Below, in pieces: positions 2,639 to 54,195 of a stretch of DNA of 64,000 nucleotides; position 1 is the stretch's first letter; each line of letters begins with the position of its first letter. Both the position numbers and the translations under genes were made by a program. The notes under the pieces were generated by a model. The model was not told where the DNA came from. It ran no database searches and was given only the letters and a program-made list of their open reading frames with translations. The DNA is from a virus (taxonomy: Duplodnaviria; Heunggongvirae; Uroviricota; Caudoviricetes). The stretch lies in the IMG/VR virus record IMGVR_UViG_2541047873_000001. One strand, 5' to 3'.

Positions 2639-3214
2639 ATGTTAACGGCGAACGATAACGCGTATTTAGAAGATGATCTCGTTTTGAGTGACTTTATAGG
2701 GCGACGAGAATGCTGGACGCAAAAGCGCGAGGAGCTTTATGCAGCGTTAGTTCGTAAAGGCGTCAACATCGAAACCGCACAGAACGGTGATATGACAGTG
2801 GTAAGTGTTGGACTGCACGGCGTAAGTGTGTCAGCAATCAATCATGAGCCGTACATTGCGTTATCCGAGTCGATGGTAAGGTTAGTTAAGTTCCTGAAGT
2901 ACACAGAAGCGAATAACGTGCTCATCGCCAAAAAGAACATCCCGTTCTCATCGGCCTTTTACTGGATGATGAAGGGGCTTGATGCCCGGCGAACATCATG
3001 GCCTAAAGGGAGCTATATATCGATGCTCCGTGGCAGTGTTGGTAGCAAAGAAAAGCTCGTCGAATTCCTGCCGGAAGAGGCATTCGATATTGTTGAAGGT
3101 TGTGATGTGATGGTTATGCCTCGCCTGGTAATGATGAATGGGGATTTACAGGCGCAGACAGACTGGTTTGCAACTGGAGTTGATATTATCGCTACTGACT
3201 GGGAGGTTTTTTGA
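2639..3214 (+). CDS. hypothetical protein with DUF2829-like C-terminal domain
   Basis: 191 aa ORF; C-terminal half has W..G...RR.SWPKG and terminal TDWFATGVDIIATDWEV signature resembling DUF2829 (Tad2-type) domains. Confidence 0.5.
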   Translation: MLTANDNAYLEDDLVLSDFIGRRECWTQKREELYAALVRKGVNIETAQNGDMTVVSVGLHGVSVSAINHEPYIALSESMVRLVKFLKYTEANNVLIAKKNIPFSSAFYWMMKGLDARRTSWPKGSYISMLRGSVGSKEKLVEFLPEEAFDIVEGCDVMVMPRLVMMNGDLQAQTDWFATGVDIIATDWEVF

Positions 3215-3701: not shown

Positions 3702-4094
3702 ATGGAGCAAATCAGTAGCGCCGAAATAGCGGATATCATGATCAGGGCTAACTGCTATCTGACGGTCACCGAAATCACCAGCCGTGCAAAAGCACAATAT
3801 CCTCACCTTCATGTGTCGCGCGTAAACGTAAATAACATCATACGTTTTTTTGTTCGTTCCAGTCGTGCCATTTGCGAAATAGACGACCGCGTATACCCCC
3901 GGAAATATTGGTTACATGGCCTGAATGGATACCAGTTCAAGGTGCGCGGGCGCACTCCTGAATTCGGTCGGCTGTTGGTGAAAAACACCAACCGAAAGAT
4001 AGAAGCTCAATTACGAAAGGAGCAGCGTCAGTTGGTGGCGATGACTAACCAGCTATGGAACGCCGCTGTGAAAAAACGTGAGGCTTCCCTATGA
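3702..4094 (+). CDS. Lpa-like late promoter activator candidate (by synteny)
   Basis: 130 aa basic protein directly upstream of pacA, preceded by an operator-like site; same arrangement as P1 lpa-pacA-pacB; no sequence-level identification. Confidence 0.35.
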   Translation: MEQISSAEIADIMIRANCYLTVTEITSRAKAQYPHLHVSRVNVNNIIRFFVRSSRAICEIDDRVYPRKYWLHGLNGYQFKVRGRTPEFGRLLVKNTNRKIEAQLRKEQRQLVAMTNQLWNAAVKKREASL

Positions 4095-5455
4095 CGTTAA
4101 TTAACTGGGAAGCGCATCGAGCTAAGTTCCTGGAGTTAAGAGAAGAAACCGGGATCACCATAAAAGAATATTGCGAGCAGCATGACCTCAGCTTTAACAC
4201 CGCCAGAAAGCATCTCAATATGAAAAAAAATGAGGTTAAGGCGAAAGCTAAGGCTGCCGGGAAAAGTACAAAACAGCGCGCAAAAAGCAGCGCCACCGGC
4301 TCAAAAAAAGAGCAAAAAAAGGCTGATAAAAGCACAGAATTTACAAAAACTGACAAATCGTTAGCTGGTGGACGGTTCCGCGCCATGCCGCAAAAACAAA
4401 ATGCGGATCACAAAGAAAAGCCAAGTAATAACAACAAGATACACAAGGATGTGAAGGGATCATTTTGTGATGAAATGGGAGAAATGATCCCTAAAAGCAG
4501 CGAAAAAGCCCAACGAAACAAGGGATCATTGCAAATGATCCCTGACTCATCAGCTCAAAGCGCCACTTTGCCTGCCACCAACGTCGCCCGTGAGATGATG
4601 AAGAACGGCGCGACTGAACATTTACGACTTGCGATACAGATGGCGCAGGAACGAGCAATTCAGTATCAGGCCATCGTTGACCAGGAAGCGGAGCGACTAC
4701 AGGAAGAGATTGACGCCCTCGGCGATACACAGCCAGAGGGGATGCACCCAGGGCAGCGTCTTCTCGGCCTAATAAGCGATGCGGCCTACTACATGAATGA
4801 CTTTATCAGTAGGTTGGCAGCCATCTACCAGACCGAGCAGAAGCTACGCCAGGGGGATGAAAAACTTGCGCAGGGCGCGCGTCAGCAGGCATTCAGGGAG
4901 GCTGAGGCCAGAGAAAAACTGGCGATTGCCCGCCTGCAAGCCGAGCAGCGTGGCAAAGAGATTGAGTATCGCATTGGCGCTGACGCACGCGCCGCCAGGG
5001 TTATCGCCGCCGCTATACGTATGCGTGAGCGCGAGGAGCTGGACGATATAGGCGTAGCTGAATATATCGAGCGGCAGGGCGTCAGTGTCCCGGCTATCCT
5101 GGCGGCACGAGCGGCAAAAGCGATCTCACTTCTGGAGCCTCCGGTTTCTGACGTTAACGATGTTGATGATGAGCAACTGGATAAAGAGGCGAAGCAGTTT
5201 GCCGAGCAACAAGCTGGACTCCCACAATGGCTTGCACAACGCCGGGCTGAAGTAGCGAAAATCGTTGATAGGCTTGGGATGGGGGATTACGACCGGAACG
5301 GAGAACGTAAAGCCGGTGAATTTGAGGCCAATGATGAAGACCTGAATATAGACCCTTCCGCCACGGCTGATATCTACGGTGATTATGACGCGGGGGATAC
5401 CGGTTTTGATGCTGTAGATGACGAGATTGCGATAGACCAGCCGGAGGATGACTAA
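4091..5455 (+). CDS. pacA: terminase pac-recognition subunit PacA-like
   Basis: 454 aa; N-terminal HTH-like segment, long charged coiled-coil middle; stop overlaps the large terminase start (TAATG); contains the GATC cluster. Confidence 0.6.
   Translation: MTLINWEAHRAKFLELREETGITIKEYCEQHDLSFNTARKHLNMKKNEVKAKAKAAGKSTKQRAKSSATGSKKEQKKADKSTEFTKTDKSLAGGRFRAMPQKQNADHKEKPSNNNKIHKDVKGSFCDEMGEMIPKSSEKAQRNKGSLQMIPDSSAQSATLPATNVAREMMKNGATEHLRLAIQMAQERAIQYQAIVDQEAERLQEEIDALGDTQPEGMHPGQRLLGLISDAAYYMNDFISRLAAIYQTEQKLRQGDEKLAQGARQQAFREAEAREKLAIARLQAEQRGKEIEYRIGADARAARVIAAAIRMREREELDDIGVAEYIERQGVSVPAILAARAAKAISLLEPPVSDVNDVDDEQLDKEAKQFAEQQAGLPQWLAQRRAEVAKIVDRLGMGDYDRNGERKAGEFEANDEDLNIDPSATADIYGDYDAGDTGFDAVDDEIAIDQPEDD
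4403..4546. other. candidate pac site (Dam-methylatable hexamer cluster)
   Basis: Five GATC-containing hexamers (GGATCA / TGATCC) in both orientations within about 140 bp inside pacA, including two copies each of gggatcatt and aatgatccc; P1 pac has clustered TGATCA/G hexamers within pacA. Confidence 0.5.
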
Positions 5456-6963
5456 TGGCTGGTGGTCGTAAGATTAAGTGCGTCACCAGTGATCCACGTT
5501 GGCGCGATATGGTTATCAGGTATCGATACAACTTTACCCAGGCGGTTGTCGATATTTTTGGGATGTTACCCTCCCACCAGCAGCAGCAGATCATTCAGTC
5601 AGTGCAGGAGACGGGGAGCAGGACGACCGTTACGTCCGGACACGGAACGGGTAAGTCGTCCCTTACCGCGATGTTGCTACTAATTTTCATGATCCTGTTC
5701 CCCGACGCCCGCGTCATTATTGTTGCGAACAAAATAGGCCAGGTAAAAACAGGCGTATTCAAATACGTGAAACAGTTTTGGGCGAATGCTGTTAAGCGTC
5801 ACGGCTGGTTACAGACCTATTTTGTCCTGTCTGACACCATGTTTTATGAGCGTTCCCGTAAAGGGATATGGGAAGTGCTCTGTAAAGGTTATCGACTCGG
5901 TAACGAAGAGGCACTGGCGGGGGAGCACGCTGAGCATTTACTGCTAATCCTTGATGAAGCATCGGGCATATCCGATAAGGCGATTAACGTCATGACGGGG
6001 GCGTTAACGCAGAAAGATAACCGTATGCTCATGCTTTCCCAGCCTACGCGTCCAAGCGGTTACTTTTATGAATCTCACCATTCAAGGGCAAAGGCAGAAG
6101 GCAATCCGGAAGGTGTCTGGACGGCAATAGTCCTTAACTCTGAAGAATCACCATTCGTTGAACCGAGCTTTATTCGTGAGAAATTGCTGGAGTACGGCGG
6201 CAGGGATTCGCTGGAGTACATGGTTAAGGTGCTGGGCCAGTTCCCGCGTGCAATTAACGGGTATTTGCTTGGTCGTGATGAGTGCGACCGCGCCGCACGG
6301 CGTAAAGTGTTGCTGGAGAAAGATTGGGGCTGGGTAGCGACCGCTGACGTCGGTAATGGTCGCGACAAATCGGTGCTCAATATATGCAAAGTATCCGGTT
6401 ATCGTGAGAAACGACGCGTTGTGAACTTTAAGATACTGGAGATGCCAGGCACTATGGACCCGTTGGCTTTTGCCGACTTTATCTATAACGAATGCACTCC
6501 TGATAAATACCCGAACATCACCATTGCTGTGGATGCTGATGGCTTTGGTTCAGATACGTGTGCGCAGCTTGTCCGCCGTGGTGCTAATCCCGTTCGCATC
6601 CGTTGGGGTAAGCCTATGTTTGCGCTAAGAGACAGAGAACGCTTTGTCAATCAGCGTGCTTACGCCAATATTATGGCAGGGGATGCCATTAAATCAGGGC
6701 GTATGCGTATCGATAGTGACCCCAAAACCGCAGATCAGGCATCAAAAATCCCGTATATGCTTAACGAAGAAGGGAAGGTAGCGATGATGCGCAAGGAGCA
6801 CATGCGGCAGAAGTTAAACATCAAGTCGCCGGACAGATGGGATACCTACTGCTTCACTATGCTGGTGGATTACGTGCCTGCTAATGAAGACATTGGCGCA
6901 GAACTCGCAACATTCCGCGATCAGGTGTTGGCAGAAGTGGATATTCCTGATATTGACATTTAA
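5455..6963 (+). CDS. pacB: terminase large subunit PacB-like
   Basis: 502 aa; Walker A-like GHGTGKS and downstream LLILDEASG (Walker B-like) ATPase motifs; follows pacA with 1-nt overlap. Confidence 0.75.
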   Translation: MAGGRKIKCVTSDPRWRDMVIRYRYNFTQAVVDIFGMLPSHQQQQIIQSVQETGSRTTVTSGHGTGKSSLTAMLLLIFMILFPDARVIIVANKIGQVKTGVFKYVKQFWANAVKRHGWLQTYFVLSDTMFYERSRKGIWEVLCKGYRLGNEEALAGEHAEHLLLILDEASGISDKAINVMTGALTQKDNRMLMLSQPTRPSGYFYESHHSRAKAEGNPEGVWTAIVLNSEESPFVEPSFIREKLLEYGGRDSLEYMVKVLGQFPRAINGYLLGRDECDRAARRKVLLEKDWGWVATADVGNGRDKSVLNICKVSGYREKRRVVNFKILEMPGTMDPLAFADFIYNECTPDKYPNITIAVDADGFGSDTCAQLVRRGANPVRIRWGKPMFALRDRERFVNQRAYANIMAGDAIKSGRMRIDSDPKTADQASKIPYMLNEEGKVAMMRKEHMRQKLNIKSPDRWDTYCFTMLVDYVPANEDIGAELATFRDQVLAEVDIPDIDI

Positions 6964-7000: not shown

Positions 7001-8038
7001 TTACCAGAGTTTTGCCGCGTACATCGTTTGTGTGAATGTGTACCCATAGCGTTCTTCAACGCTTTTACCGTATTTTTTCCTGGCTTCAGTAAGGCGGATG
7101 CCTGTCAGGTCATCGCCGGAGGCAATCATAACTTCCAGTAGTTCCAGGTCCATTTTATCCAGCCTTGCCATTGCATCTTTAGCCTCTTGAATTTTCCGGC
7201 TAACGATCTGGTGTATGGCTGGATCGGCTTCGGCCAGCATTTTATCTGATTTGTTTTTTAAACTCTGATTGCGGATATCAATGTTTCTCAGGATATATGA
7301 CTTCACGACATAGCTTGGCTGCTGCTTTTCCAGATCACGAACCCGATAAAGGTCAAATTCGCCGAGAAGTCCGCACGGAAGCGGTTTAATGCCAGTGTAA
7401 ATGGTAAGGGTGCGGCGCTCACCAACGTTGTTAACAACGGGAATCTCTGTGTTTGCTTTTTTTGCAAAGATCAGCGCACCGTGCGTACCCACTCTGAAGC
7501 GTGAAAGTCCATTGTTGCCCTCGATATTGGTGGTAATCACCACATCGGTATAACCTTCTTTTCTTGCGCGGTATACCTCGCCCTCACGTTCAGCGGCGAA
7601 GAATCTGCGTTCTTCTTCAAGCGCACCGACAACCTGTGAAAATATCCTGTTTTTCATGCTTTTCTTTATAGTTTTATCGTATTTTTTCAACAGGTCTTCG
7701 CGCGTAAATGTTCTCGTTGTGGTTGCGCTTTGCATAACGATATGCGTACTCTGATTAGTATCCTCAACAATGAATGGGATCGGTAAATAAACCGACTCAA
7801 CAATGTTTGAGGCTTTGTCATCATCCTTGCGACACAGATCAACAAAGGCTTTCCATTCGGCTACGCATTTTTCAGCTTCTTCTAATACAGCCGGATCATG
7901 TGTTAATGCAACATGGCGAAATTCCTCGCCAACATAACTGGTATCATGGAAAACAGAGTTTGCGACCACCAGCTCTTTCCACCGTTCAGCGGTTTGCAGG
8001 AACCGTTTGTACTCATTCTCGATCGACTTCTTACTCAT
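7001..8038 (-). CDS. c1: C1-like immunity repressor (by position)
   Basis: About 345 aa from the internal MSKK start (track ORF extends to 8326 with no better start); lies between pacB and the recombinase as c1 does in P1; operator-like sites flank its promoter. Confidence 0.5.
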   Translation of the reverse strand: MSKKSIENEYKRFLQTAERWKELVVANSVFHDTSYVGEEFRHVALTHDPAVLEEAEKCVAEWKAFVDLCRKDDDKASNIVESVYLPIPFIVEDTNQSTHIVMQSATTTRTFTREDLLKKYDKTIKKSMKNRIFSQVVGALEEERRFFAAEREGEVYRARKEGYTDVVITTNIEGNNGLSRFRVGTHGALIFAKKANTEIPVVNNVGERRTLTIYTGIKPLPCGLLGEFDLYRVRDLEKQQPSYVVKSYILRNIDIRNQSLKNKSDKMLAEADPAIHQIVSRKIQEAKDAMARLDKMDLELLEVMIASGDDLTGIRLTEARKKYGKSVEERYGYTFTQTMYAAKLW

Positions 8039-8056
8039 TATTCCTACTCGATTTAG

Positions 8057-8067
8057 TTTTCTAACAT
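8057..8067. promoter_or_regulatory. C1 operator-like site (c1 promoter region)
   Basis: ttttctaacat core; a second inverted copy (tattagaaaa) lies at about 8131-8140. Confidence 0.45.
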
Positions 8068-8233
8068 AAAAGTCCTGTGACAAATTTATGCCGAATAACA
8101 AGGTGAGTAAAGGATAAAACCGCTTTTTTTTGATTGTTCCTATTAGAAAATGTAACCAGGAGCGGCTACCGCATGGCTGACGGATTTGCGAAGTGATCTG
8201 GTCGGTGTTTTTTTGGGAAAAAGTCCCGATTTC

Positions 8234-8265
8234 TAACTTTAAATAATTGGCATTATTTAAAGTTA
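8234..8265. other. rox-type site-specific recombination site
   Basis: taactttaaataat-tggc-attatttaaagtta: perfect 14 bp inverted arms around a 4 bp spacer, about 150 bp upstream of the recombinase gene; matches my recollection of the Dre target rox (reverse complement). Confidence 0.8.
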
Positions 8266-8417
8266 GGCTATAATCTCCAGTAAACAGGCAGTATTGACAA
8301 GGATGAAAAATCATGCCTCGAATCAAAGGCTTGAATTTTGAAAATTAACTTATAACTACCCTGTCAGTTTTCTATTTTTCACGTAGCGTTATCTGTATAT
8401 AGAGGTTTAATAGTTTC

Positions 8418-9446
8418 ATGGGTGAACTAGTTATCTCCGGCGGTTCTGGTGGTTTTCTGCGCGATATTGGCACCGAATACCAGGAAGCTGCAAAAAACTT
8501 TATGCAGTTCATGAACGACCAGGGAGCTTATGCCCCAAATACACTTCGTGATCTCCGTCTGGTGTTTCATTCCTGGGCGCGGTGGTGTAACTCGCGCCAG
8601 CGCCCCTGGTTCCCGATTACGCCGGAAATGGCCCGCGAGTATCTTCTCCAGTTGCATGAGGCCGATCTGGCTTCGACCACCATTGATAAGCACTATGCCA
8701 TGCTTAACATGCTGCTTTCGCAATGTGGCCTCCCGCCGCTGTCGGACGATAAAAGTGTGTCTCTGGCCATGCGGCGCATCCGGCGCGAAGCGGCAACGGA
8801 AAAAGGCGAGCGAACAGGCCAGGCTATACCGTTGCGGTGGGATGATCTGAAATTGCTCGACGTGTTGCTGTCCCGTTCCGAGCGGCTGGTGGACCTGCGC
8901 AATCGGGCGTTTCTCTTCGTGGCATACAATACCCTGATGCGTATGTCAGAAATCTCGCGCATCCGCGTCGGAGATCTGGACCAAACAGGTGACACTGTAA
9001 CGCTGCATATTTCACACACGAAGACCATCACGACCGCCGCAGGACTTGATAAGGTGCTTTCTCGTTACACTACCGCCGTACTGAACGACTGGCTGGAGGT
9101 GTCCGGACTTCGAGAACATCCGGACGCGGTGCTATTCCCGCCAATACACCGCAGTAATAAGGCCAGAATCACGACAACGCCCCTTACTGCACCTGCAATG
9201 GAGAAAATATTCAGCGATGCCTGGGGGTTGCTGAACAAACGAGATGCCACGCCGAACAAGGGAAGATACCGGACGTGGACAGGCCATAGTGCGCGTGTTG
9301 GTGCGGCAATTGATATGGCTGAGAAACAGGTGTCAATGGTCGAGATCATGCAGGAAGGCACATGGAAAAAGCCCGAAACACTTATGCGATATTTGCGCCG
9401 TAGCGGGGCATCCGTTGGTGCAAATAGTCGCCTGATGGATTCATAA
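8418..9446 (+). CDS. dre: Cre-family tyrosine recombinase (Dre-like)
   Basis: 342 aa; colinear with P1 Cre by eye (WFP, LAFxxxAYNTLxRxxEIxRIRVxD, GHSARVGAAxDMA, C-terminal Tyr region). Confidence 0.9.
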   Translation: MGELVISGGSGGFLRDIGTEYQEAAKNFMQFMNDQGAYAPNTLRDLRLVFHSWARWCNSRQRPWFPITPEMAREYLLQLHEADLASTTIDKHYAMLNMLLSQCGLPPLSDDKSVSLAMRRIRREAATEKGERTGQAIPLRWDDLKLLDVLLSRSERLVDLRNRAFLFVAYNTLMRMSEISRIRVGDLDQTGDTVTLHISHTKTITTAAGLDKVLSRYTTAVLNDWLEVSGLREHPDAVLFPPIHRSNKARITTTPLTAPAMEKIFSDAWGLLNKRDATPNKGRYRTWTGHSARVGAAIDMAEKQVSMVEIMQEGTWKKPETLMRYLRRSGASVGANSRLMDS

Positions 9447-37036: not shown

Positions 37037-37700
37037 TAACCGACCGCTGGCGGTGAGTCTTTGTGATTATACAGGGAATATGGTTTCCCCCTGGCTGGAA
37101 CACGGCATTGATGCAGTCATTGTCGATCCGCAACACCAGGAGTCCGGCAGCCAATTGATGGAGTCAGGTGCTGTACTCACACGTATCAGCGCAATTATTG
37201 ACAGTGATGAGGTCTACAATTTCCTTCGGAAAAATTTGCACAGAGTTGTATTTTTAGCCGGTTTCCCTCCGTGTACTGACCTGGCTGTATCTGGCGCACG
37301 CTGGTTCGCAGATAAAGCGAAAAAAGATCCGGTTTTCCAGTTCAAAGCAATGCAGGTTGTCTGGCAGTGTTACGACATTGCAAAGATGATTGGTTGCCCG
37401 TACATGATTGAAAACCCGGTCAGCCAAATATCGACATTCTGGCGTAAACCTGATCACATATTCCATCCTTATCACTTCACTGCATATTGCAAGGAAGACA
37501 ATTACACCAAAAAAACATGCCTGTGGAGCGGACAAGGATTCATCATGCCAACTCCGCGAATCGACGAGTCGTTAGGTGATCCAGACAACCGAATACACAA
37601 GGCACCGCCAGGACCTGAAAGAGCGAATTTTCGTAGCGCGACACCTTACGGTTTTGCAAGAGCTGTATTTGAAGCAAATAAGGAGGGAATCCGTGGCTGA
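37020..37700 (+). CDS. degenerate C5-cytosine methyltransferase-like protein (start uncertain)
   Basis: AGFPPCTDLAVSGA resembles C5-MTase motif IV (PCQ to PCT), MIENPVS resembles the ENV motif; motif I region degenerate; stop overlaps dam start. Confidence 0.45.
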   Translation: MKQSINNRPLAVSLCDYTGNMVSPWLEHGIDAVIVDPQHQESGSQLMESGAVLTRISAIIDSDEVYNFLRKNLHRVVFLAGFPPCTDLAVSGARWFADKAKKDPVFQFKAMQVVWQCYDIAKMIGCPYMIENPVSQISTFWRKPDHIFHPYHFTAYCKEDNYTKKTCLWSGQGFIMPTPRIDESLGDPDNRIHKAPPGPERANFRSATPYGFARAVFEANKEGIRG

Positions 37701-38610
37701 TATTGGTGCTAAATTTATTTCTTATAGCGACAATCATCGTCCTGCGGCGGAAGCCACTATCAGCCATATGCGACGTATTCGCTCGGAGGACGAATTTGAT
37801 CGCCCCGTCTTTAAGTGGGTCGGCGGCAAATTTTCTGCACTGCCCATTATCTTCGAACACCTGCCCCACGGAAAACGGTTGATAGAACCTTTCGTTGGAG
37901 GTGGCGCTGTTTTCACTAATGCCGGATTTAAAAGCAACCTGCTGAACGATATCAATAATGACCTGATTAACTTCTATCAGACATTGCAGCGTGAAGGGCA
38001 TTCTCTTATCACACTGGCATATCGTTTTTTTCAGGATTACAACTCTGCTGATGCATTTTTGAATGTTCGCAATGCATTCAACAATGGTGCTTATGATTCC
38101 CTTCACCATGCAGCGGCGTTCCTGTATCTCAATCGTCATTGTTTTAATGGCGTCACTCGCTATAACCGTAAAGGAGAGTTCAACGTCGGATATGGAAAGC
38201 AGAAATCCCCCCACTTCCCTCTCGCGGAAATGGAGGCGTTCCTGGCTGACGATATTTCAAAGTATTCGGAATTTGTGTCCGGCGATTTTGCTGGTGTAAT
38301 TGAGGCTGCAGGGAATGATGATGTGATTTTCTGCGATCCCCCCTATGAACCATTGCCCGACACTACCGGATTTACAAATTACTCAGGGCATAGCTTTAGG
38401 TTTGAAGATCAACAACGGCTGGTGTCACTGCTGGTGGATGCCCACAGACGCGGAGCGAAAATTGTGATAACAAACAGTGGTGCGCCTAACATTCGCGAAC
38501 TTTACGTTGGCAATGGCTTCAAGGTGTATCCTATGCCATCCCGTCGCTCTGTATCCTGTAAAGCATCAACCCGAATGATAGCTAACGACATTATAGCCAC
38601 GCTCAATTAA
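37693..38610 (+). CDS. dam: DNA adenine methyltransferase (Dam family)
   Basis: GTG start after aaggaggg RBS; FKWVGGK, EPFVGGGAV, FLYLNRHCFNG, DPPY motifs; hairpin terminator at 38613-38636. Confidence 0.9.
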   Translation: MADIGAKFISYSDNHRPAAEATISHMRRIRSEDEFDRPVFKWVGGKFSALPIIFEHLPHGKRLIEPFVGGGAVFTNAGFKSNLLNDINNDLINFYQTLQREGHSLITLAYRFFQDYNSADAFLNVRNAFNNGAYDSLHHAAAFLYLNRHCFNGVTRYNRKGEFNVGYGKQKSPHFPLAEMEAFLADDISKYSEFVSGDFAGVIEAAGNDDVIFCDPPYEPLPDTTGFTNYSGHSFRFEDQQRLVSLLVDAHRRGAKIVITNSGAPNIRELYVGNGFKVYPMPSRRSVSCKASTRMIANDIIATLN

Positions 38611-51449: not shown

Positions 51450-52001
51450 ATGACACCTTCTGAACTATTAGAAAGCGTTAAAGCGCGATTCAATCCTCTT
51501 CTTGTACGGGAAGAGGAAACACTGAAAGCATTCCTGCTCAAAGCGTTGACTACTTACCAGGACAGGGCAGGCGTAGTTAAGGCGTTAAAGCTGGAGAAAT
51601 CAGACGGCACGGCGATCCCTGTTCCGGATGATTATCTGTCTCTGGTCCACGTCACTGACCACAACGGGCTTCTGGTTTACGCCGACGAGATTGCCGGTTT
51701 TGTCGAACTTGAGCTTACCGGTTCTGAACGCTGGCCTTTCAAGATGCAATACCTTGTAAATCTCCGCGATCGCAACCTGGATGAGTGGCAAGTGCCACCT
51801 GCGATTATCGGAATGCTTGAGGAATATCTTGAAGCACTTATCAATGTCCGCAACGTTGCCCGCCAGCGAAGGGCGTCAATTGATGGCAAGTTTGATTACT
51901 CCGATCTTCCTGATGAGGCGACGCTCTACGCGCGTGTTCAGGAGATAGAAGAAAAAATGGCAGCCAACCGGGCCATTATCCCTGGTGCTACCATTTTTTA
52001 A
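51450..52001 (+). CDS. hypothetical structural protein
   Basis: 183 aa. Confidence 0.45.
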   Translation: MTPSELLESVKARFNPLLVREEETLKAFLLKALTTYQDRAGVVKALKLEKSDGTAIPVPDDYLSLVHVTDHNGLLVYADEIAGFVELELTGSERWPFKMQYLVNLRDRNLDEWQVPPAIIGMLEEYLEALINVRNVARQRRASIDGKFDYSDLPDEATLYARVQEIEEKMAANRAIIPGATIF

Positions 52002-52014
52002 CACGGAGGGCTAC

Positions 52015-52722
52015 GTGAGTATTTTTAGTGCTACAACGCAAACGCTAGCCAGTGCGGTATCGTTTAGCGCGAAATCGTTCACCAGCAACCTTATCAGCGA
52101 CATTCTGGATAGAGCGGTGTCTGGCAGTGGCGTTAGTGGGAGCTACGGCAATGACATCGCTTACGGAAAGAACGTAGTTGCTACGGCTATGCGTATCCGC
52201 TATGCCCAGGGCTGGCAGTGGACGGTAGACGTAGACGGATTAAGCGGCTTTGATATGTTCGTTAAGGACATCACTTACAGTAGCGGGAATATTGAAACAG
52301 AAAGCAAAATCATTGGTAGCGTCGAGTTCAATAAGCCAACGCACGTAACCGCCGGGCCGGTAACAATGACGGTCAGAGACACAGAAGACGGCAAAATAAT
52401 GAATTGGTTCAAAGAGCGCCGCGCTCGTGTAACCAATAGCGATGGTACGCTAAACCTGCCGCCAGATTATCTCATGAATATCAGGCTATACCGCGTTACA
52501 CAGGAAGGCGGGAAAGAGCTGGAAGAGGAAATGCGTGTATTTCCGACTCAGATAGGAGAGATCAGCCGCTCACGTGATCAGGTGTCCGAATTCTTGTCCT
52601 ATCCGATCACGTTCCAGCGATACACATCTGCCGGTTCCGGCCTGTCCGCATTAGTCAATGGAGCTGCTGGTTTAGCAACAAGCGCACTTAAAAGCGCCGC
52701 CAGCAACGTGATCAAGTTTTGA
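52015..52722 (+). CDS. hypothetical structural protein
   Basis: GTG start after acggaggg RBS; about 235 aa. Confidence 0.45.
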   Translation: MSIFSATTQTLASAVSFSAKSFTSNLISDILDRAVSGSGVSGSYGNDIAYGKNVVATAMRIRYAQGWQWTVDVDGLSGFDMFVKDITYSSGNIETESKIIGSVEFNKPTHVTAGPVTMTVRDTEDGKIMNWFKERRARVTNSDGTLNLPPDYLMNIRLYRVTQEGGKELEEEMRVFPTQIGEISRSRDQVSEFLSYPITFQRYTSAGSGLSALVNGAAGLATSALKSAASNVIKF

Positions 52723-53053: not shown

Positions 53054-53809
53054 TTAAGACTGCTGATAGGTGAATTTTATTTTTGTAACTCTGCCACCTT
53101 CTGTAACCTCTGAGAAAACTATTTTCATTTTTGTGTTTTTTTCGATTTCAGCTACAGCTTTTGCCAGAAAGCTTCTCTTAAATTCGGCGTACCGTTGATA
53201 GCTTTTGGGAAGACCATAACGCTCCCGCATCCATTCAACGCCAAGTATAGCGAAGCCGCTCCCATCATCCTTTCTATACTGGCATAAGGACTCATAAAGC
53301 CGCATAGAATAAGGGTTTGTCAGGCGAGACACTTCAGTAAAATTCAGCCTCGTGAACCTCTTATCAAGCAGAGTAAAAAACGGCATGAGATATGGATTCA
53401 GATGAATAATGTAAGTCCCCCGGCGTGGTGAGTAAGCCTCCTTAATCATCCAGGGATAAGACTCATAACTGTCTTCTGATTCGGTTGATTCATCAGGGTT
53501 ATATATCGTGACTTTCTTCTCACTAAGTCCGGAGATAGCTTTACGAATATCCTTGCTGGCTTCAGCAGAGGGCAAATTATACATCTCTGCATATTCGTTG
53601 ACCGTCAACTCACAGGCACCTGAACCAAGAACGCCATCCTTAGAAGCATAGCGAAGTCTTCCCACCACAATAAACAACAGTCGCTTTTGGTCGCGTGTCA
53701 GGTGATAAGCCGCCTCTGTGATCTCATTGGCCTGCGCCAAGCTACGGCTAATTGGTGTCGCTGATTCAATCAGACTGACGGCTTTTGCCGTTAATTCCGC
53801 TCTGTTCAT
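53054..53809 (-). CDS. repA: replication initiator RepA (iteron-binding)
   Basis: About 251 aa from MNRAEL; flanked on both sides by iterons as in the P1 R replicon. Confidence 0.75.
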   Translation of the reverse strand: MNRAELTAKAVSLIESATPISRSLAQANEITEAAYHLTRDQKRLLFIVVGRLRYASKDGVLGSGACELTVNEYAEMYNLPSAEASKDIRKAISGLSEKKVTIYNPDESTESEDSYESYPWMIKEAYSPRRGTYIIHLNPYLMPFFTLLDKRFTRLNFTEVSRLTNPYSMRLYESLCQYRKDDGSGFAILGVEWMRERYGLPKSYQRYAEFKRSFLAKAVAEIEKNTKMKIVFSEVTEGGRVTKIKFTYQQS

Positions 53810-53832
53810 AACCCTGTGTGATCCTTCAAATG

Positions 53833-53952
53833 GTGAGGGCAATTTTTACATCACTTTGAGGGCAATTACTACACCTTTTGAGGGCAAATCTTACACCTGC
53901 TGAGGGCAAATCTTACACCTCAATAGCTTAATTGAGGGCAAATCTTACACCT
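53833..53952. repeat. origin iterons (incC-like), five direct repeats
   Basis: Five copies of TGAGGGCAA(A/T)T(C/T)TTACACC at about 22-23 bp spacing immediately upstream of repA. Confidence 0.8.
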
Positions 53953-54038
53953 TGGTCCTCTACAAGCCCCGCCACCCCTGGCCTCCGTGATGCCTAAAAA
54001 GGATCTAAAAAGGATTAAAAAGAGAAAAAGGTTTATAA

Positions 54039-54047
54039 AAATACTCT
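54039..54047. promoter_or_regulatory. DnaA box
   Basis: ctgtggata (reverse complement tatccacag) next to an AT-rich stretch with GATC sites (aaaaaggatctaaaaaggattaaaaag). Confidence 0.5.
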
Positions 54048-54195
54048 GTGGATATGTGAATTGCGTCACTTAAGGTGTAAAAATCACCCTCAATAGTTGC
54101 TGTTCGATCGACAAAGATCCTTATTCAATACTCCCACAAATCACACACTCCCTATCCTCTGAAAAACTAACTGAACCTAGCTTTCGGAGGAATCC

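Follow-up and report, generated by a model that had tools for sequence, protein, structure and literature searches.

Five GATC-containing hexamers inside pacA form a candidate pac site in a D6-like phage-plasmid

Where a P1-related phage-plasmid of the D6 type begins to package its DNA is the question raised by a 64,000-nucleotide (nt) stretch of viral DNA (IMG/VR record IMGVR_UViG_2541047873_000001), hereafter called the window, in which five GATC-containing hexamers are grouped within pacA, the predicted gene for the small-terminase-like A subunit of the pacase. Comparative analysis leads us to propose that this cluster, at positions 4405 to 4543, is probably the recognition part of the pac site, from which headful packaging would start. 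The pac site of bacteriophage P1 represents the classic packaging signal gated by Dam methylation and is the basis of P1 transduction and of P1-derived phagemid tools. The primary work on this site is reportedly that of Sternberg, Coulby, and Skorupski. P1 pac measures approximately 161 to 162 bp, lies within pacA, and harbors four plus three TGATCA/G hexamers, with an integration host factor (IHF) site and the cuts in a central position, and its cleavage is regulated by Dam methylation (NC_005856 annotation; PMC10028697). Synonymous recoding of the P1 hexamers lowers phage titre approximately 9-fold (PMC10028697).

In the window, GATC occurs at positions 4406, 4458, 4486, 4524, and 4537, all within the pacA open reading frame (ORF), and each copy forms part of one asymmetric hexamer (GGATCA in three cases, TGATCC in two), the hexamers together spanning 4405 to 4541. 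The two predicted packaging genes and the five elements are as follows.

4091..5455, plus strand: pacA, a 454-codon ORF predicted to encode the small-terminase-like pacase A subunit (454 amino acids [aa])
5455..6963, plus strand: pacB, predicted to encode the large terminase (pacase B subunit), on the basis of identity to P1 PacB and matches to large-terminase PHROGs
4405..4410, minus strand: element 1, GGATCA (TGATCC on the minus strand), with GATC at 4406, read as codons GAT CAC (Asp106-His107)
4455..4465, minus strand: element 2, AGGGATCATTT, hexamer at 4457 to 4462, the inverted partner of element 3
4482..4492, plus strand: element 3, AAATGATCCCT, hexamer at 4485 to 4490, with GATC at 4486
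4521..4530, minus strand: element 4, AGGGATCATT, hexamer at 4523 to 4528, forming with element 5 a palindrome with 10-bp arms and a 3-nt spacer
4533..4543, plus strand: element 5, AAATGATCCCT, hexamer at 4536 to 4541, with GATC at 4537

The cluster occupies nt 315 to 451 of the 1365 nt of pacA, in the 5' third of the gene and directly upstream of pacB, and displays a 1 + 2 + 2 layout with inter-hexamer gaps of 46, 22, 32, and 7 bp. The elements constitute 11-nt direct repeats, the last four of which extend to the octamer ATGATCCC/GGGATCAT, a sequence with four of its five copies in the window located here. Two perfect inverted pairs are formed, one by 4455 to 4465 and 4482 to 4492 (arms 16 nt apart) and the other by 4521 to 4530 and 4534 to 4543 (arms 3 nt apart). 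The presence of five GATC hexamers in approximately 140 bp of pacA, as reported in a first-pass annotation of the window, was borne out, while the alternating orientation described there applies to the last four elements but not to the first two, which point in the same direction (minus, minus, plus, minus, plus).

Such an arrangement was compared with 1000 dinucleotide-preserving shuffles of the 64-kb window. Five TGATCC/GGATCA hexamers in 135 bp were encountered in 0 of 1000 shuffles (maximum, four), as were four octamers in 90 bp (maximum, two); the motif used in these counts was picked after inspection of the data, and P1 had beforehand pointed to the 5' third of pacA as the location. The cluster is the sole place in the window with at least four GATC per 150 bp, and in the complete 92.8-kb genome of a relative (NZ_LR890273) there is no other cluster of at least three hexamers and no other five-GATC cluster. 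Smaller GATC groups were observed in the window at 52560 to 52710 (four GATCA-type GATC in 150 bp, at the 3' end of ORF 51985 to 52722) and at 54002 to 54116 (three GATC just upstream of a RepB-family replication gene at 53054 to 53842, minus strand); both groups may be Dam sites associated with an origin, as in P1 oriR.

Conservation within the D6 clade was assessed across 27 loci possessing a 454-codon pacA without indels, with 17 haplotypes of pacA nt 301 to 460. Within this segment, 92 of the 160 columns are variable, namely, 1 of the 20 GATC columns versus 91 of the 140 others (Fisher exact test, p = 2e-7), the single varying GATC column reflecting the loss of element 2 in one of the 27 loci (L053). 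The surrounding DNA is among the most divergent of the gene, the window and D6 sharing 62% identity at nt 301 to 460 and 59% at nt 151 to 300 versus 75 to 87% outside nt 151 to 460, and approximately 20% of the linker residues encoded here are conserved across the three subtypes represented by the window, D6, and L025. In this linker-coding region, the only runs of at least 9 nt that are invariant across 23 D6-clade haplotypes of pacA are AAATGATCCC (element 3) and AATGATCCC (element 5), and both elements are also kept in the outgroup L027. Element 1 is present in every D6-clade haplotype and is degenerate (GATTC) in L027. GATC is retained even where the encoded residue changes: element 2 reads AGATCA in D6 (GGA to AGA, Gly to Arg), and element 4 reads GGATCT in D6 and AGATCA in L025 (again GGA to AGA, Gly to Arg). 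The Asp codon is always GAT and the Ile codon always ATC, the third position of the Pro codon that follows TGATCC being T, C, or A. Because the inverted arms encode the unrelated peptides KGSF and EMIP, their symmetry does not arise from selection on the peptide. Eight further full-length D6-clade loci from metagenomes all keep the five GATC, elements 3 and 5 having been demanded by the search itself. Judging from these alignments, the elements are held by selection on the DNA itself, beyond coding need.

A separate conserved stretch of pacA was observed at 4202 to 4236, where none of the 23 D6-clade haplotypes differs within a 29-nt run, GCCAGAAAGCATCTCAATATGAAAAAAAA, and the three subtypes have 35 identical nt, third positions elsewhere being conserved in approximately 40% of codons. 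Conservation of the run, which holds an ATG followed by eight A, does not extend to the outgroup L027; the run could represent an internal start, a slippery sequence, or some other signal in the DNA or RNA.

The comparison was extended to a family set in which relatives of PacB (56 to 100% identity) were drawn from IMG/VR and from a Serratia genome, the latter supplying the single locus obtained in a scan of genome contigs. GATC clusters are found at approximately nt 150 to 470 of pacA in every lineage. Across 14 lineage representatives, nt 140 to 480 of pacA contain 88 GATC versus 19.5 expected from flanking DNA, and 83 of these 88 carry the TGATC/GATCA core, compared with 55% of GATC elsewhere in the window. 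For the window alone, the same interval holds five GATC versus 1.1 expected (P = 0.005), all five with the core. P1, in which pac has been mapped, fits this family pattern of GATC excess with a TGATC core. The TGATCC/GGATCA form is used by the branch that comprises the window, D6, L025, L027, and L055, while the other lineages mostly employ palindromic TGATCA, L029 and L056 being mixed. Most lineages are two-armed, with a long element-free center. The nearest outgroup, L027 (83% PacB identity), possesses three elements at nt 157 to 181 and five at nt 380 to 471, and this right arm aligns with the window cluster, its element 4 being displaced. On the basis of the 14 lineages, we defined a broad class of PacAB hexamer clusters, the features of which are displayed by the window: adjacent pacA and pacB, an excess of TGATC-core elements, and conservation beyond coding.

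A particularly ordered variant was observed in L034-L045 and L054 (73% PacB identity), in which nt 154 to 237 of pacA carry six or seven (A/T)GATCA hexamers, mostly TGATCA, with a strict 12-bp period. These repeats code for (D-H/Q-x-x)n, two further hexamers are located at nt 363 and 379, and the left arm is far more regular than that of P1.

The protein presumed to read the cluster, PacA, exhibits 74% aa identity to PacA of D6 and matches phrog_1711 ("terminase") over its full length (E = 1e-167), with weaker matches to the small-terminase PHROGs phrog_370 (residues 1 to 320) and phrog_51 (residues 3 to 84). A three-way alignment revealed an N-terminal motif, W..H..F..G.T..Y..L..NTAR..L, which is common to this PacA and P1 PacA. 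Pfam and NCBIfam searches assigned no family to PacA or PacB, a PDB sequence search with PacA gave no match, and the search for a helix-turn-helix (HTH) in PacA yielded sub-threshold hints only. A single-sequence AlphaFold2 model of residues 1 to 70 predicts helices at residues 6 to 19, 24 to 30, and 35 to 42 (predicted local distance difference test score, 75 to 87); with this three-helix model, Foldseek returned no match at E < 0.3, the matches listed being mostly HTH domains. The candidate pac cluster corresponds to the DNA that codes for the variable linker of PacA, between the conserved N-terminal and central domains. In four of the five TGATCC-type lineages, the sequence of the putative recognition helix is NTARKHL, the fifth (L055) having STGRKKL, while in TGATCA-type lineages it is NTARREL, NTVRRQL, or NTARRYL. 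Such co-variation between predicted helix and hexamer is suggestive, and is inseparable from shared ancestry.

Two further features, both conserved and lacking GATC, lie in or beside the cluster and are candidates for the center of the site.

4429..4441, plus strand: weak, tentative IHF-like site, TAACAACAAGATA, between elements 1 and 2
4338..4357, plus strand: conserved island, AATTTACAAAAACTGACAA, 48 bp upstream of element 1

The IHF-like site shows two mismatches to the consensus WATCAANNNNTTR and shares 9 of 13 bases with the annotated P1 IHF site, AAACAAAGAGTTA, and a match is found at the same position in D6, L025, and L027. The scan with the consensus gave no match better than two mismatches; an IHF consensus drawn up after the fact, which also fitted the P1 site, was dropped as circular. 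The island is kept, synonymous positions included, in the window, D6, L025, and L027, in a linker that is otherwise approximately 20% conserved. In L027, it is situated midway between the left and right GATC arms, and it may be part of the site, as a cut or bending region.

With regard to DNA ends, one D6-type contig (L049/L096; IMGVR_UViG_2537562191_000021) has as its position 1 the base that follows the GATC of element 1 (GGATC, then ATGAAA). Among public contig ends, no second contig ending in the pac region was found, and the metagenome matches are stored stretches rather than contig ends; the start of this contig is probably a coincidence.

The proposal of a candidate pac site, already made in the first-pass annotation, gained support from comparison, namely, from the position shared with P1, the TGATC core, the conservation within the D6 clade, and the excess across 14 lineages, while the likeness to the P1 hexamer cluster asserted there holds in kind (TGATC core, place in pacA) but not in layout. 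A number of observations nevertheless weigh against a pac function. Taken by itself, GATC density does not reach significance over the whole window and was dropped as a statistic, because 256 of the 1000 shuffles (26%) reach five GATC in 135 bp. The window contains five elements versus the seven of P1 (plus an eighth nearby), and no element-free gap exceeds 46 bp (the next largest being 32 bp), compared with a center of approximately 90 bp in P1. No left arm is present at pacA nt 150 to 250 in the D6 clade, including the window, and for this reason the cut position cannot be placed. The match to the IHF consensus is weak and, by a rough estimate, not beyond chance, and the functional site may reach approximately 70 bp to the left of the cluster, to approximately 4338. 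In BLASTP, the C-terminus alone of PacA aligns with P1 PacA, and tblastn with PacA did not reach P1 PacA; because the two proteins are this diverged, the specificity of PacA may differ from that of its P1 counterpart.

Conservation at the DNA level reveals a function and not its kind, and the cluster might thus be a Dam-read GATC element with a role other than packaging, whether in the timing of pacA/pacB through SeqA or methylation or as a replication or segregation signal, in which case the true pac would lie elsewhere or be absent, with headful initiation independent of sequence. The smaller GATC groups near the replication genes of the element and the departure from the P1 pac layout are consistent with such a role. 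We consider it unlikely, however, given that the position in pacA matches that in P1, where the function was mapped experimentally, and that the same GATC signature accompanies pacA in 14 lineages; in addition, no sigma-70-like promoter was predicted at the cluster, and the 92.8-kb genome offers no other hexamer cluster as an alternative pac.

The pattern could also be a by-product of coding, the DNA itself being functionless and the repeats reflecting a duplicated peptide (K-G-S-x...M-I-P) in a low-complexity linker. The two pairs do encode KGSF..EMIP and KGSLQMIP, the elements are 11-nt direct repeats, and the GATC density is within chance for 64 kb. This explanation appears very improbable in view of the inverted symmetry, which joins codons of unrelated peptides, and of the Gly-to-Arg changes across which GATC is nonetheless kept, the GAT, GGA/AGA, and ATC choices being fixed while nearby third positions vary. 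GATC is, moreover, maintained in a linker of which only approximately 20% of the residues are shared by the three D6-clade subtypes, and the GATC clusters of other lineages code for different peptides, such as (D-H-x-x)n. Finally, a consensus scan lists the palindrome at 4521 to 4543, with its 10-bp stem, 3-nt loop, and tail containing T, as a terminator-like structure on the minus strand, as would befit a hairpin or intrinsic terminator acting on antisense transcripts, the other GATC being incidental. This reading was discarded, since D6 does not maintain the stem: its arms measure only 7 bp with a 9-nt spacer, and both GATC are still present. Given also the weak tail, and with elements 1 to 3 and the family-wide pattern left unexplained, we regard the terminator reading as extremely improbable.

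By sequence, the window is a D6-like, P1-related phage-plasmid: the DNA around pacA is approximately 80% identical to that of phage D6 and 99% identical to that of 90- to 94-kb plasmids from Escherichia coli and E. marmotae, and PLSDB contains 130 records of D6-like phage-plasmids, which are frequent in E. coli and Salmonella. The gene order, lpa-pacA-pacB-c1 (minus strand)-rox-dre, is the same in annotated D6 records and syntenic in P1, and PacB shares 56% identity with P1 PacB across 488 aa. The features of this neighborhood, together with a distal methyltransferase gene, are listed below.

3702..4094, plus strand: lpa, predicted late promoter activator (PF25716, E = 2.5e-50; synteny with D6 and P1)
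8234..8265, no strand assigned: rox recombination site, TAACTTTAAATAATTGGCATTATTTAAAGTTA, the same sequence as the annotated D6 rox
8418..9446, after rox: gene for a Dre-like tyrosine recombinase, based on recombinase domains
37576..38610, plus strand: gene for a Dam-family N6-adenine DNA methyltransferase (PF02086, E = 2e-53; TIGR00571 "dam," 231 bits with a cut-off of 115)

The rox site is identical to that of D6, with a differing left flank. The program-made ORF at 7001 to 8326 runs past rox, and c1 itself probably has the 345 codons found in D6. The lpa and pacA genes overlap by 4 nt (ATGA, 4091 to 4094), which may couple the translation of pacA to that of lpa; in P1, by comparison, 85 nt with the late promoter LPpac separate these genes. 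Two ORFs before lpa, a 191-aa protein encoded at 2639 to 3214 contains a Tad2-like (Thoeris anti-defence 2) domain (E = 4e-10), its homolog in a 99%-identical plasmid bearing the RefSeq label "MW1434 family type I TA system toxin." The methyltransferase homolog in a 99%-identical plasmid is annotated as belonging to the Dam family, and the enzyme of the element would methylate the GATC of the candidate pac site. P1 too encodes its own Dam-type methylase.

If the cluster is the recognition part of pac, its use can be envisaged by analogy with P1, from which PacA binding, methylation dependence, cut position, and packaging direction are all borrowed. The GATC adenines would be methylated by host Dam or by the element's own Dam-family enzyme, after which PacA oligomers would attach to the five elements sharing the TGATC core, of which AAATGATCCC is the best-conserved form, via an N-terminal HTH-like three-helix domain. 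Host IHF or HU might bend the DNA, PacB would cut the concatemer within or beside the cluster, and headful packaging would run rightwards through pacB, c1, and rox. In P1, packaging proceeds from pac to lox, and lox is thus located in the terminal redundancy of the first headful; rox would end up in the equivalent position here. The distance of 3.7 kb from the cluster to the downstream rox, compared with 4.0 kb from the pac cuts to lox in P1, represents a conserved spacing which suggests the same arrangement of pac and recombination site.

We tentatively raise the further possibility, itself rather doubtful, that the D6 clade employs a compact, one-armed version of the P1-type signal, built from inverted pairs of the asymmetric 10-bp sequence AAATGATCCC, in which the left arm has been lost and the cut falls outside the cluster. 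The cut would then occur, for example, near the island at 4338 to 4357 or the IHF-like site at 4429 to 4441, and the switch from A/G to C at base six of the hexamer would go along with the change in the putative PacA recognition helix (NTARKHL versus NTARREL/NTARRYL). If this were true, the PacAB family would constitute a natural series on how methylated repeats are read and how many arms are needed.

Taken alone, a candidate pac is no surprise, being an expected feature of a P1 relative with a variant layout. Its definition, however, would permit a direct test of site-specific packaging and transduction by D6-like elements and open the way to D6-based phagemids orthogonal to P1, and, coupled with the 14-lineage comparison, it would allow the co-evolution of the elements and PacA to be studied.

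Packaging signals inside a small-terminase gene are also known from P22, SPP1, and staphylococcal phages of the 80alpha type, in which an oligomeric small terminase binds repeated short elements. These signals are not known to be built from GATC or to be gated by Dam methylation, and the corresponding small terminases show no demonstrable kinship to PacA (no match in Pfam, NCBIfam, or the PDB).

P1, in which pac has been mapped, is among the nearest known counterparts. Its hexamers are located at nt 195 to 229 and 325 to 376 of the 1194 nt of pacA, with IHF at 256 to 268 and the cuts at 276 to 285 (NC_005856), and conform to a mostly palindromic TGATCA/G consensus, whereas all five hexamers of the window are of the asymmetric TGATCC/GGATCA form. 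Where P1 has two arms, the window has one single element and two inverted pairs, and the distal left cluster that is present in P1, L027, L034, L004, and most other lineages is not found in the window, in which PacA is also barely alignable with P1 PacA beyond the N-terminal motif and the C-terminus. The two systems nonetheless share the placement of their elements ahead of pacB, in the 5' third of pacA that encodes the linker, the concentration of several TGATC-core GATC elements in approximately 140 to 160 bp, and a recombination site (lox or rox) approximately 4 kb downstream, past pacB and c1.

A survey of P1-like elements describes a second subgroup with pacB homologs only and no pacA (PMC7969092), which we presume to be the D6-like one. 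No pac site is annotated in the D6 records AY753669 and MF356679, and the literature citing D6 yielded no statement on a D6 pac, in a search that stopped short of the three papers likeliest to discuss D6/P1 pac. Element 2 of D6 (AGATCA) and its element 4 (GGATCT) result in shorter palindromes than those of the window. D6 (AY753669 and MF356679) and D6-like plasmid prophages from E. coli and Salmonella nevertheless harbor five GATC at the same pacA offsets as the window (316, 368, 396, 434, and 447), with the same element orientations, pacA length, rox site, and gene order.

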